Of a DNA stretch of 64,000 nucleotides, positions 2,455 to 43,390 are shown piece after piece. Location of the stretch: positions 242,296,001 to 242,360,000 of the forward strand of contig OZ024742.1 of the NCBI GenBank assembly GCA_964016885.1. The letters run 5' to 3'. This stretch comes from Eledone cirrhosa (lineage: Eukaryota). The position numbers and the translations under genes are program-made. Every line of letters starts with the position of its first letter. Within the stretch, counting starts at the first letter, position 1. Below the pieces are notes generated by a model, which saw nothing but the letters and a program-made list of their open reading frames with translations, ran no database searches and had not been told where the DNA came from.

Positions 2455-3253
2455 GAGGTCCCTTAATAAGATATAACATAATTATATGTGTTTATTTTTT
2501 ATTTTATCTTTGTCTTCACAGTATATTTTATATCCTCAAATTCAAATGCAAATTAAGCGTTGCCTTTATGTTCTGGTTTTGAAATTGCCTATTGCATCCG
2601 AAGAGATTTTAGACAGGAAATCTACAGAACTTACTGAACATCAAAAGCAAGCTTCAATAATCTTCTTTCAAAAATCCAACAAATCTTTTAATATTTTAAA
2701 TTCCTTGCTGAGGCTTTTGTTGTAAATATTTTCTATTATTTCCTTGGGGGGATTCATTCGTTAAATTACATGATTATACAGATATATAAAAGTATATATT
2801 TCCTATGAATGTGTATTCCATACGCACGGGAAGAGCGTAGATACATGATCAGTGCACATTCGTTGACATAATTAGAGTAAATATATGATGCTTGTATATT
2901 CAAGTATTAATGAGGGAATTTTACAACAATGTAATTATATGTAGTTTTGTAGATTAATATAATTAGGAACTATCAACATTGTTTTTGAGTTTCTATTTGA
3001 TTTTGGATATTTATCAACAGTATCACATGTATTCTTCAAGCATGATAATCAGTACTTAGTAGAAATGAGAAGTTCTGATGTTCAATCCTATATAATGGCA
3101 CACAATGTAGAGAAGATAGCTATTTAAATCTATATACCACCACAAATGAATACAAATATTTGTATATAACCATATACTTGTATGAAAAGATAATAACCTG
3201 CAAACATATGCATATATATTAATATATATATATTTATATATATATATATATTT

Positions 3254-8345: not shown

Positions 8346-8532
8346 ATAATTGTTTCTACTTTAGGCACAAGGCCAGCAAATACCCAGTGCATTACTGGTA
8401 CTTTTATTTTATCGACCCCGTAAGGATGAAAGGCAAAGTCAACCTCGGCGGGATTTGAACTCAGATCGTAAAGGGACGTAACTATGCTGGAAAGCATGGC
8501 GTCCGACCCTCTACCGATACTGCCAATCCAAT
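8346..8532 (-). mobile_element. OK-like SINE
   Basis: A box, B box (gagttcaaatcc) and gcctttcatccttacggggtcgataaa central domain on the minus strand. Confidence 0.85.
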
Positions 8533-8534
8533 GA

Positions 8535-10472
8535 ATAATGCTCCAGAAACTGTTAAGCGCTTCTAGATGTAGTAGAGAACATGGGCCCTGGCATCAGCAT
8601 GTAGCTATTACCAACATGGGATTAACTGCATCCCATTCGGATTTTGGCTGCATTAAGCTATGTCTACGACACTACCCGGATCGTGCATTGCTACTTCTCT
8701 GTCAGGAACACTCAAACTTCGTCAGATCTCGTAGATTCTTCGAACAATCATCATATTCTATTATACCCAGTCTTGTATTGACTGAATTTTCCATCCTATA
8801 TTCCAAAGTGTTTGGGTTTCACATTGAAAATTAAGACTCGAACCTACACTACGTATCACCTGATACCACTCCTACTCTTCTATCATCTATATCTATATTT
8901 ATAACCCTATCATCTATATCTATATTTATAACCATGTATTCTCCAACCCTGTTACCTATTGTTTATTTACTACACCTTGTTCTGTATTTTATTTCTTCTG
9001 TATTTTGATATCTTCGATATTTTCTTATTTACTTCCATTTTTACTCCCACAATTACCACCCTTCGTATGACTGTATTTTATTCATTTTATTCTCCTTATA
9101 TACTTATCCCTTTACTCATCTGTTACCTAAAATTAGCACACAACACTAGAATATTACTTTCTGCACCCTTTATAACTGTTTATCTTTAATTACTCCCCCT
9201 ATCCACTCAGGATTCACACTGCATATAAATTGAAATAACCCGGGCTTTTAAACTTCACACCAATCGTTTGGTACACGCGATGATCCGATGGCTATGACGG
9301 CTTTCCCGCTTGCACGCCCAGCGCTTGTCTCGGTCAACCTTCCTAGAGTGCTTGGAAAAATAAATTTCCCTTTCTTTCGGTAAACGAAAATACTCTGAAT
9401 CCGCCGTGTCACCGGTTAGTGACCGCCAAACAGTACTCTTAAATTTTAGGTTTAATCTTTAATCCTAACTTTAAATTCTACCCTAAAAAGTTATCATGAA
9501 TATCAAAAGTATATTTAACTTTTACATAAATGCCTCCTTCTACTAGTTCTATAACTAAATCCCCCACTAGTGTGAATAACTAATAATCGTTTGGTATACG
9601 CGTTGATCAGCTGGTGACGGCCTTCCCGTTATCACCCCCAGCGCTTGAGTTGGTTAACCTTCCTGGAGTGCTTGGAAAAATAAATGTTCCTTTCTTTCGG
9701 TAGACGAAAATACTCGGAACGATTGACACGCCTTTGGGCCCTGAGTGGGCTGGGAATCCGTCACGCTATTGGTTATTGACCGCCAAACGGTACGCTTAAA
9801 TTTGAGCTTAATCTTACTTTTTTTAATCTTAACTTTATATTCTACCCTGAAACTTTATTATGACTATCAATAATACATTTTACCTTTTCATAAATGCTTC
9901 CTTCTGTATATTCTTTAACTAGATCTCCCAATTTTAAACTTACATCTTACTTTTCTAACCTTTAATCTTATCTTAAATTATATCTTTTAATTCTAATTTT
10001 ACATTTCTAATATTTAATCGTAATTTCTAACTCTACATTCAAAAGCCTACTGTAGATCCGTCAACTATATTTTTAATTTATTTCTTAGTACTTTTTATCA
10101 CTTCTTACTAACTCTTATATGTAACCTGATCTCACCGCTAGCATCTGTCCACGACGTGGTAGTAGTAATATACACTATAAACGTACGGCCCATTGACCAG
10201 ACCGACAGACAAGATTAAGTATAATAGAATCCTCACTTGGAGGCAGCCGCCTGGACTAGTAACTGCTAATTTCTGGCCACCTTCTCCTCTTGAGCATTTC
10301 TCTCTGCTTTTCAGCCCCTTGGATTGTGTCTATTATTATATTCCTTTGTTGGATGAATTTAAGAATACCTGATGATGTCACCGGATTCATACTGAACTCG
10401 GTCATTGAAATGTTCATAGTATAATAAATATTTAAGGAATTACACTAGTCCAGCCTCCTGTCATTTTATAAT
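8535..10472 (+). mobile_element. Family E: PLE-derived element with long 3' region, two tandem structured-RNA modules and a terminal HHR
   Basis: Tandem ~320 bp duplication (9262/9585); HHR at 10365-10422; the last ~170 bp are homologous to the termini of 41065-43008; weak GIY-YIG C-terminus-like RRFFEQ segment near 8730; the 5' boundary is uncertain. Confidence 0.55.
10365..10422 (+). ncRNA. Type I hammerhead ribozyme
   Basis: atac-CTGATGA-stem II-GAAA-tgttca-TA-gtat followed by aataaa. Confidence 0.75.
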
Positions 10473-20892: not shown

Positions 20893-21360
20893 ATGCACAT
20901 AAATATAATAGTTACTACTTTTGGCACAAGGCCACCAATTATTCCAGTACATTACAGGTACTTTATCGACCCCGTAAGGATGAAAGGCTAAGTTAACCTC
21001 GGCGGGATTTGAACTGAAACCGTAAAGGGCCGTAACTGTATGTTGCAAAGCATGGTGCCCGACTCTCTACCGATACTGCCAATCCAACGCCTTGCACATA
21101 AATATAATTGTTTCTACTTTTGGCACAAGGCCACCAATTATTCCAGTACATTACAGGTACTTTATCGACCCCGTAAGGATGAAAGGCTAAGTTAACCTCG
21201 GCGGGATTTGTACTGAAACCGTAAAGGGCTGTAACTGTATGTTGCAAAGCATGGTGCCCGACTCTCTACCGATACTGCCAATCCAACGCCTTGCACATAA
21301 ATATAATTGTTTCTACTTTAGGCACAAGCCCAGCAATTACCCAGTGCATTACTGGTACTT
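20893..21360 (-). mobile_element. Tandem array of OK-like SINEs (period about 199)
   Basis: tgcacataaatat occurs three times, separating two near-identical copies and one partial copy. Confidence 0.85.
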
Positions 21361-21399
21361 TATCACTATATATAATAGTTGAAACAAACGGGTAAAGTT

Positions 21400-29934: not shown

Positions 29935-30190
29935 TCATTTGGCCGGTGATTATCCCGGTTTCATGGCGTGAAGCGACTGAGAATATAAGACTCCCCCATG
30001 GACAGGACACCAGTCCATCGCAGAGTTTACCCCCCAGCTATTGCTGGTACTCGTTTTCAGCTGAGTATACTGGAGCAATGTCAAATGAAGTGTTTTGCTC
30101 AAGAACACAACACGCAATACAGGAATCGAACCCATGACATTATGATCGTAAGTCCAACACCCTTACCACTAGGCCACGTGCCTCCACTTA
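29935..30190 (-). mobile_element. CORE-type (OR-like) SINE
   Basis: Minus-strand A box gtggcctagtggtaagg, B box ggttcgattcc, cttgagcaaaacacttc core. Confidence 0.8.
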
Positions 30191-40871: not shown

Positions 40872-40920
<49 letters not shown>

Positions 40921-41064
40921 TTATTTAGGTTTGAGGTTCACCACTGGATAGAGCTGGTCAATTCCGTATGGTCAATCTTAATGTAATAATATGGAGAGGA
41001 CTCCACGTAAAGCAGTTCAACCGTCTTTGTTTTTGTAGTTGGTGGTGCTATTACGGAGTTAAAT

Positions 41065-43008
41065 ATTATAATGAAATGACAGGAGGCTGGACTTGTGTAA
41101 ATCCTTGAAAGGTTTATTATACTATGATCATTTCAATGACCGGGTTCCGTATGAAGCCGGTGATATCATCAGGTATTCGAAATACAATAAGTGAATGCAA
41201 TAGATAAAATTCATGGGGCTGAAAATCAAAGACCGGAGGACGACCGCCATCCAGCATCTTCCACCTTTGCTGGTCGCCCTCAAGTGACATGGCTAAAGCT
41301 TATAGTGTGCTCCTACCGGTCAAATAGAGGAAAACAGAAAGGGAGAGGAACATAAGTCAGCGTTAATATCATGCCAAAAGAAAGAAGAGAAAAAAAGGGG
41401 GAAGGAAGAAAAGGAAGAAGAAGAAAAGCCAGGGATAATGTCCAGCTACAAGGAGAAAGACAGAAAGAAAGAGGAAGAAAGGTCGGTATTAATGTCAAAC
41501 TACAGTCAGGCCAGGCATGGCGCGAAAAAAAAATTTTCAAAGGGACCCGTATCTTAACAGCTACTACCGGTAAAATTTAGGCAAACAAAAAGGGGAGAGG
41601 AAGATAAGTCAGCGTTAATATCATGCCACAAGAAGAAAGACAGAAAGGAGGGGGAAGAGAAGGAAGAAAAGGAAGAAGAAGAAAAGTCAGGGTTAATGGT
41701 TACAAGAAGAAAGACAGAAAGAAAGAGGAAGAAAGTTCGGTACTAATGTTATTCTAATGTTATTTTATAATGTTATTCTGAATTCTTTCAACTTCATCCT
41801 ATAAATCTAAACAATAATTTAACGTTCCAACTTTCTGTCGGACTGTTGGGTTGGTTTTCCTGGCGGCGGGACCGGCCCCCTGGCGCATAGGCCTACCTTG
41901 AGTGCTTTGGAAAAATAAATTTCCCCTTCTTTCGGTAAATGAAACTACTCGGAGTGGCTTGATCCGCAGCAGGGGCCCGGCGCGTAGCCGGTTTTTTGAC
42001 CGGCATATAGTACCTTTAAATTACAGATCTAATCATAATTATTAGATGTATCACGCCTCTCTTTACTTATGCAAATCCCCCTCCTGGGTAAATGAATAGT
42101 ACTGGTTTTGTACAAGGATGGCCTAACGATGCGGGCTGACTTCCCGCTGGCGCACCTGAAGCCTGTTATACATTCCTAGAGTGCTCGGAAAAATTGATTT
42201 CCATATATTTCGGTACGCGATACCACTCGGAGTGGGTGGGCTGCGCAAGCCTGTGATCGCCGCATGCTGTTTGACGGCTAAACAAAGACATAATCTTTAC
42301 TCTATAATAAAATTTAAGTTTCTTCATAAAAGACACTTTCTTTGCTTAAACCCCGCAACCTTAAAAATGTTAAACTGTTTAACTTTCAATTTTCTTTAAT
42401 TTTATAATGTTAATATTAAAGATTCATTTTTTAACTTCATCCTATAAATCTAAACAAAAATGTAACGTTCCAATCTTCTGCTCACACATTATAACATACA
42501 AATCCCCATTATATTTACCTCTGCTAAGATACGGGTCCCTTTGAAAATATTTTTTTCGCGCCATTCCTGGCCTGACTATAGTCTGACATTAGTACCGAAC
42601 TTTCTTTCTGTATTTCTTCTTGTAGCCATTAACCCTGACTTTTCTCCTTCTTCCTTTTCTTCCTTCCCCCTTCTTCTCTCTTCTTTCTTTTTTCTTGTGG
42701 CACGATATTAACGCTGACTTATGTTCCTCTCCCTTTCTGTTTTCCTCTATTTGACCGGTAGTAGCACACTATAAGCTTTAGCCACGTCACTTGAGGGCGA
42801 CCGGCAAAGGTGGAAGATGCTGGATGGCGGTCGTCCTCCGGTCTTTGATTTTCAGCCCCATGGATTTTATCTATTGCATTCACTTATTATATTTCGAATA
42901 CCTGATGATATCACTGGATTCATACGGAACCCGGTTATTTGAAATGATCATAGTATAATAAACCTTTCAAGGATTTACACAAGTCCAGCCTCCTGCCATT
43001 TCATTATT
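41065..43008. mobile_element. Family E fold-back element, about 1.95 kb, with an HHR in each arm and two structured modules inside
   Basis: About 490 bp inverted arms (41067-41560 vs 42520-43008); HHRs at 41119-41176(-) and 42898-42956(+). Confidence 0.85.
42898..42956 (+). ncRNA. Type I hammerhead ribozyme with palindromic stem III loop
   Basis: atac-CTGATGA-stem II-GAAA-tgatca-TA-gtat, then aataaa. Confidence 0.75.
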
Positions 43009-43061
43009 ATATATATATATATATATATATATATCCATGACTGTGTGTGTGTGTATATAAA

Positions 43062-43390
43062 CACGTGAAAGCGCATGGCTAAGTGATTAAAGCGTTGGGT
43101 TTGCAATCATGAGGTTGTACGTTCGATTCTCGGACCAGATGATGCGTTGTGTCCTAGAGCAAGACACTTTATTTCACGTTGCTTCAGTCTACTGAGCTCT
43201 AGAAATGAGTGACGACAGAGTTGTATCGGCCATTGCCTTTCCTTTGAGCAAAATCGGTGGCGCTGAGAAGGCAATCTGATATGCATGGGTGGGTGACTGC
43301 TGTTCAACCATAAACAAGCGTGCCCGGTAGCGTACCTTTTCTAAGCGCAAATCTATGATCATTCTCGACTGAAGGACATGTTTACCCAAT
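43062..43390 (+). mobile_element. CORE-type (OR-like) SINE, second subfamily
   Basis: A box tggctaagtgatt, B box gttcgattc, gagcaagacactttatttcacgttgc; related pieces at 7585-7760 and 59092-59200(-). Confidence 0.7.

Follow-up and report, generated by a model that had tools for sequence, protein, structure and literature searches.

Insertions in the window and the module they carry

The window, a 64,000-nucleotide stretch of Eledone cirrhosa DNA (contig OZ024742.1, positions 242,296,001 to 242,360,000), contains two insertions that each carry a structured RNA module in a tandem pair. The first insertion (8530..10470, plus strand) is a 5'-truncated copy of a non-coding unit, family A, and ends in (TA)n at the first of two 3' end sites. 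Module A1 lies at 9264..9432 on the plus strand, with its neck and Y-shaped head at 9342..9397 (CC, a UA bulge, GAGUG, two hairpins and UACUC). Module A2, which has a long rod, lies at 9587..9790 on the same strand; its neck and head at 9662..9717 have a UG bulge, and hairpin 1 is damaged in the window copy. At 10364..10423 (plus strand) the unit has a hammerhead of the minimal type I form, in which helix II is long and helix III has a single pair closed by a loop that reads GUUC here and palindromic GAUC in most copies. Comparison with family copies identified the second tail hairpin, of the type GCUC ... UU-GAGC, at 8540..8558 (plus strand), with one change in the window copy.

The second insertion, family B, consists of two back-to-back arms at 40917-43015, each of which ends at a different 3' site, an arrangement found in many copies. 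The inverted arm (40917..41749, minus strand) continues as far as the second 3' end site, where (TA)n follows. It includes a hammerhead at 41120..41180 and, at 41000..41059, the first tail hairpin ACUC-CG ... CG-[UG]-GAGU with an AC-rich inner part, both on the minus strand. The direct arm (41762..43015, plus strand) stops at the first 3' end site, again in (TA)n. On its plus strand it carries module B1 at 41836..42005, with a short rod, an internal loop rich in U, and a neck and head at 41896..41952 (UU bulge), module B2 at 42105..42289, with a neck and head at 42175..42230 (UA bulge), and a hammerhead at 42897..42956.

Other repeats surround these insertions. A short repeat is inserted just past the second 3' end site in several units (window about 8390-8530; loci L130, L139 and L194), and the same repeat occurs as a 199-bp tandem at window about 20894-21364. 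A tRNA-like repeat head is found at 30111-30179 on the minus strand (29.4 bits, at the Rfam gathering score), and the stretch near 43065-43140 resembles such a head by eye.

The four module copies and their shared head of about 50 nt had been proposed in a first-pass annotation, and on re-reading the sequence both the coordinates and the head agree. The head pattern matched four times in the 64-kb window compared to a mean of 0.25 in shuffles, and 970 exact matches were found in the 3.0-Gb assembly compared to none for the reversed pattern, which served as a control; the module is therefore genuine. A neck-only pattern gave 1,869 matches genome-wide versus 89 in the control. This census relies on letter patterns and not on an RNA-model search, and very distant heads may be missed. 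The loss of part of the A1 3' arm, noticed earlier, amounts to about 37 nt relative to the lineage majority sequence. The outer stem that had been given for B1 (tgtcgg/ccggca) turned out to depend on a private change, as the lineage majority ends in GACCGCC/AACCGCC.

A search of Rfam 15 revealed no family at the gathering threshold over the module, in line with the earlier failure to match it to a known RNA, and none of the SECIS models matched at E values up to 10. A SECIS role, as in Naiad elements, was rejected: no ORF with an in-frame UGA lies upstream, and the nearby ORF family is of the C-terminal GIY-YIG type and has no module. Resemblances to K-turns and SRP RNA did not hold when inspected by eye. 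The head pattern had no match in viral contigs. It matched 82 stretches in metagenomes, of which none of the 80 examined completes the head, and an RNA model gave no score above 15 bits on 79 stretches. Among the viral contigs and metagenomes searched, the module was thus not found outside the Eledone genome. A weak RNA-model match in L358 falls in a palindromic repeat unrelated to the module; a repeat of palindromic structure, about 900 bp long, at L358:4032-4955, with a hammerhead-like core in each arm, is present in several other loci too. Neither the module nor the tail duplex presented below was found described in the freely available main texts covered; the supplements of PMC8557442 and PMC11167929 may show related hairpins. 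We conclude that the module is real and apparently undescribed.

The module hosts are non-coding units that span from hammerhead to hammerhead with a period of 1,778-2,627 nt (seven complete units). The seven complete units share no frame, their longest ATG frames being 44-175 aa, and tblastn of the protein of P1, an ORF-bearing Penelope family discussed below, gave no match in them. At least one head is present in all seven, and also in 8/8 loci that were chosen on the 5' region and reach past the module. Units carry one, two or three modules, and zero in none sampled; the tandem pair that both window elements had been said to keep is common but not obligatory. A lineage without B2 carries B1 twice, via two different repeat units. 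Many internal stretches of these units are duplicated, so modules can be repeated without selection, and this duplication of B1 after the loss of B2 is suggestive only as a sign of selection.

As previously noted, hammerheads are present downstream of the modules on the same strand. The unit hammerhead, read from sequence, has the minimal form of the family A copy, mostly with the GAUC loop; it was undetected by Rfam, and its core pattern has 4,534 exact matches genome-wide and none in the control. Past the hammerhead, 60 of 161 3' ends fall at +110-119 and 61 at +240-269, mostly followed by (TA)n, and the target is AT-rich. The unit tail, between the two fixed 3' ends, is about 140 nt long. 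Partial tandems and an inverted 5'-truncated arm are also present in host units, and 4 of 30 5' truncations fall in B1, with no excess over neighbouring stretches. The hammerhead, the two 3' ends into (TA)n and the back-to-back arms match marks described for Penelope-like elements. These results support a Penelope-type, hammerhead-bearing host with a selected cis-acting RNA structure that is absent from Rfam, one of two hosts suggested in the first-pass annotation; the other, a small retrozyme, does not fit a non-coding unit of 1.8-2.6 kb. In at least five further families of minimal-hammerhead termini (L066, L070, L077, L191, L193 and others), helix II is long and the 3' ends lie at two sites, in (TA)n.

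No autonomous element that shares the unit terminus was found among 30 loci picked by hammerhead or 139 module loci. Where read, Penelope ORF pieces beside 11 of the 139 module loci proved to be separate insertions, and a small ORF after the tail is not common to the families. In three sequencing runs, whose kind is not recorded, all 30 bins of the unit are covered; this shows its presence only. In loci L031-L034 (G000:C4:77.586-77.611 Mb), five near-identical family A module pairs with a spacing of 4.3-7.4 kb were amplified along with other retroelement pieces. We regard the host as a new and unusually large form of non-autonomous Penelope derivative, conceptually related to retrozymes.

Lineages, folding and covariation

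The 227 distinct module copies form nine clusters, A1, A2, B1, B2, C1, C2, D1, D2 and E; families G and H were added later and were picked up via the neck. Between lineages the head is 87.5% identical compared to 54% and 44% for the arms, with head conservation inflated because copies were mostly collected via the head. The neck is kept in the distant families G and H, where BLAST showed no resemblance to family B in the surroundings of the module.

When folded singly, the four window copies gave weak z-scores (-0.82, -2.71, -1.02 and +0.45), as expected of decaying insertions. The Y appears in the minimum-energy fold of the third window copy (B1) only, and enforcing it on the four costs 0.7, 5.1, 0 and 0.1 kcal/mol; in eight of the nine lineage majority sequences the cost is zero. 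Pair probabilities in the majority sequences are 0.92-0.98 for hairpin 1 in all nine lineages, while hairpin 2 is weak in C2 and D2 and the neck is weak in C1. The rod and Y fold is thus predicted for the majority sequences of most lineages, with single genomic copies often lacking it. The plus-strand preference proposed earlier was also recovered, the z-score being better than that of the minus strand in 8/9 lineages.

Compensatory changes were counted on majority sequences, from which the structure was also derived, a procedure that favours it: the five long-rod sequences have 13-14 compensated pairs versus 2-5 with partners slid, and the four short-rod sequences have 8-11 versus 1-6. RNAalifold on 13 raw copies gave a much weaker result, 26 pairs of which 3 are compensated. 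Arm pairing is kept by 65 of 140 variants that are shared among several copies versus 273 of 879 rare variants (comparison within families; p about 5e-4, the counts not being independent). Selection acts on arm pairing. In the head, none of 19 pairs is compensated across lineages A-E, and one of 17 after the distant family G was added. The claim of covarying stems therefore holds for the arms but not for the three-way junction, where covariation is weak: the rod is backed by covariation, whereas the nearly invariant head is backed mainly by complementarity and conservation.

Three further observations concern the arms and the head. On the element strand of the paired arms, over all lineages, A-to-G changes are slightly more frequent than U-to-C changes (0.060 versus 0.046) and the two are equal elsewhere; this excess is too slight to claim RNA editing of the arms. 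At L146:1400-1600 an inversion broke at a module head, and two modules now form an almost perfect hairpin with each other. In the 5' arm, an RCUC-GG further upstream offers the neck strand another partner and could give a tail-type hairpin as an alternative fold; it was seen at L181 about 2940-2985 (minus strand) and in the A1 and G majority sequences, at a position that is not common to all lineages.

A bulged duplex in the tails and in the neck

Both clusters of 3' ends sit just 5' of tail hairpins, at about +118 and +250-262. The tails of the hammerhead families share a bulged hairpin, RCUC-NN ... N'N'-[UN]-GAGY: 47 of 81 long hammerhead tails have it, compared to 66 of 3,000 windows drawn at random. 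In the intact-ORF family P1 it is present in 23 of 24 tails, and in the F families in 32 of 43. A second hairpin of this kind lies beyond the second 3' end, in the units and in P1, where the two are at +93 and +194.

The neck of the module contains the tail duplex with the strand order switched, CC-[UN]-GAGU-RCU followed by the two hairpins and YACUC-GG. In its letters it is the bulged duplex RCUC / UN-GAGY, circularly permuted, of which copies lie immediately past both 3' ends in these units and in ORF-bearing Hydra-type Penelope elements. The permuted duplex, a motif defined after seeing it, occurred 1-10 times in 5,000 shuffles of the head and 0-1 times with the RCU extension. Among 183 heads that were located by features other than the bulge, the first bulge base is U in 174 and the second is free (A 66, U 62, G 52, C 3). 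The tails exhibit the same pattern, a first base U and a free second base. The pair beside the bulge is G-C in the module and C-G or U-A in most tails, and nothing in the tails corresponds to the two head hairpins, which are the most conserved part. Recognition by a reverse transcriptase, one of several roles listed in the first-pass annotation, gains specific support, since the neck repeats a motif of the element ends.

Two ORF-bearing Penelope families are present in the genome. P1 is a young family with many loci (G000, L035-L084), open frames that span 910-970 codons, about 2 kb of 3' UTR, its own hammerhead and (TA)n targets. Its intact 915-aa protein has RWR (instead of RWK), DKT and CxCX5C motifs plus GIY-YIG at its C terminus, and by these motifs it is assigned putatively to the Hydra clade of Penelope elements. 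F2 (L353, L354 and L356), with a reverse transcriptase 42-52% identical to that of P1 and a long 3' UTR, is joined to RT and GIY-YIG coding sequence and includes the exact GAGUGCU motif in its tail; it is a candidate helper, as is P1. Arginine-rich stretches are present in the protein sequences of both families, in P1 near residues 90-100 and 627-637. The module was absent from 19 of 20 P1 loci, the remaining locus containing a separate inverted family B copy, and from eight F2 loci, and the tail duplex is all that P1 and F2 share with the module-bearing units. As these ORF-bearing elements have no module, the enzyme does not need it.

If the neck were read like a tail hairpin, the 3' ends of some copies should lie immediately 5' of its ACUC. 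Among 87 sampled 3' ends that map to family B, none is at the neck and none lies beyond +299. Two genome-wide patterns led to one locus, L391, that ends at the predicted place. L391 is a (TA)n insertion. Its direct arm breaks off 5 nt short of the neck ACUC, and its short inverted arm reaches the regular second 3' end site and ends there; the remaining part of its module is absent within 1.1 kb downstream. It is a single case, turned up by patterns designed around this very prediction. One locus genome-wide and 0/87 ends make the neck at most a rare start site.

Possible function and comparison with known systems

We propose, with a probability of roughly one half, that the module may serve as an internal docking site for the borrowed RT-endonuclease of an autonomous Hydra-type Penelope element, a site that would rarely start copying. 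Its observed part comprises non-coding hammerhead-delimited units, (TA)n ends, a shared duplex, the invariant bulge U, selection on the arms and the retention of at least one module. The element RNA would be transcribed, and the rod would display the bulged duplex, which could bind an arginine-rich stretch of the helper enzyme via a U-A-U triple, an arginine sandwich. In the tail, the AU-rich strand 5' of RCUC would be open and copying would begin there. In the module, the strand 5' of RCUC would be held in hairpin 2, and the enzyme would bind and seldom start. Such a site would thus load enzyme without truncating the copy, and with more sites the parasite RNA would compete for enzyme in trans. 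That the tail hairpin itself binds the enzyme is likewise a supposition, the available in-vitro work (PMC11167929) being concerned with another clade. The main gap is that docking leaves the two head hairpins unexplained.

Penelope-type reverse transcriptases are the closest mobile relatives of telomerase. A wider generalisation, which we hold to be less likely than not, is that these enzymes might recognise RNA via a TAR/7SK-like arginine sandwich, and that giant protein-free parasites might display permuted, start-blocked copies of it as natural aptamers that soak up the enzyme of several helper families. The one in-vitro study of how Penelope-like enzymes choose their RNA maps binding only to about 170 nt (PMC11167929). 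A motif at both start sites that is permuted inside parasites offers a single-base test, at the bulge U, and a natural control that separates binding with starting from binding without it. If true, the model would explain how non-coding hammerhead elements move in trans, would provide a portable tag to load RNA onto a compact RT-endonuclease, and would connect the recognition of RNA by retroelements with a motif already described in 7SK and TAR.

The strongest rival, which we regard as unlikely, is a host interaction like that of 7SK and TAR, which bind proteins with an arginine-rich motif: such a protein (e.g. HEXIM or a part of the elongation machinery), or a factor for export or stability, would bind the module, or a host factor its two head hairpins, and raise or relocate the element RNA. 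The neck geometry and strand order equal those given for TAR and 7SK in the portion of PMC6189040 considered here, the head hairpins are highly conserved, and the fact that ORF-bearing elements do without the module fits a need special to non-coding RNA. A generic sandwich, however, does not need the flanks GAGU-RCU and ACUC, which match the tail hairpin of the element, and L391 starts where an internal docking site predicts.

It is more doubtful still that the neck derives from a tail hairpin, duplicated or inverted, and survives as a relic with no partner, the rod being kept only because a compact fold aids RNA survival. Inversions do arise in Penelope-type insertions (at L146 one falls on a head), head pairs are almost uncompensated, and the collection of copies via the head inflates its conservation. 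A relic would nevertheless have to account for the excess of head over arm identity between lineages (87.5% versus 54% and 44%), for a neck kept in G and H in the absence of BLAST similarity around the module, and for a bulge with one fixed and one free base.

A poly(A) signal or a DNA-level promoter element in a structured context is improbable as the role of the head. AAUAAA is found in loop 1 of A1, A2, B1, C1, D1 and E and is shifted in G, and the head letters are conserved more than the head pairing, but the second modules B2, C2 and D2 do not have the hexamer, cleavage at the head would remove the tail needed for copying, and the arm covariation and strand bias indicate RNA. Slightly less probable again is a stability element in which the rod clamps a poly(A) tail. 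The B1, C1 and D1 majority sequences do have U runs on both strands beside a CC/GG stem, a U-rich internal loop beside G-C pairs like that of ENE triple-helix elements as defined in the parts of PMC12501189 and PMC7583470 used here. Unlike in those elements, the loop is missing from the seven other lineages with a majority sequence (A1, A2, B2, C2, D2, E and G; 3/10 have it) and therefore cannot be the common function of the module, and hammerhead-cut RNA would have no poly(A). Least probable is a new self-cleaving or otherwise catalytic RNA, an early suggestion that the near-invariant three-way junction with conserved unpaired bases and no Rfam match might recommend, but which is unsupported as neither 3' ends nor 5' truncations cluster at the module, the unit already has a hammerhead, and cutting would destroy the template.

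The units and their module can be set beside known systems. Hydra-clade Penelope-like elements have, in the sections of the published account covered here (Craig et al. 2021, PMC8557442), a hammerhead terminus, partial tandems, an inverted truncated arm, a one-sided tail and (TA)n targets. The module hosts share all of these, and P1 has RWR, DKT and CxCX5C motifs. Unlike those elements, the hosts code for no protein, and their tail is about 140 nt compared to the published 30-40; the same sections describe neither an internal structured module nor a bulged tail hairpin. Metazoan non-LTR retrozymes, as far as the excerpts of PMC7229834 and bioRxiv 10.64898/2026.07.22.740005 go, are non-coding and hammerhead-delimited, some of them head to tail, and their mobilisation by Penelope-like elements was proposed. 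The host units resemble them in these three structural features. They differ in size (1.8-2.6 kb, not 150-450 bp), in that most copies are truncated two-armed insertions, and in their minimal hammerhead. Like PAc, a member of another clade (Frangieh et al. 2024, PMC11167929), the units have two fixed start sites past the hammerhead, an AC-rich tail stem-loop and AT-rich targets; the available text on PAc describes no bulged-duplex motif and no internal copy of one.

In the arginine sandwich of HIV-1 TAR and 7SK stem-loop 1, as outlined in the consulted part of Pham et al. 2018 (PMC6189040), the U of the bulge makes a base triple together with the A-U pair that lies two steps further up. The neck has the corresponding sequence, a bulge pyrimidine after a Watson-Crick pair and an A-U pair two steps up: a paired base, a bulge with U as its first base, followed by G-C and A-U pairs. 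Its two-base bulge is as at U40U41 of 7SK, and its bulged strand is 5' as in TAR. Unlike either RNA, the neck is capped by a predicted three-way junction and not by a small loop, and the resemblance to TAR and 7SK is probably convergent.
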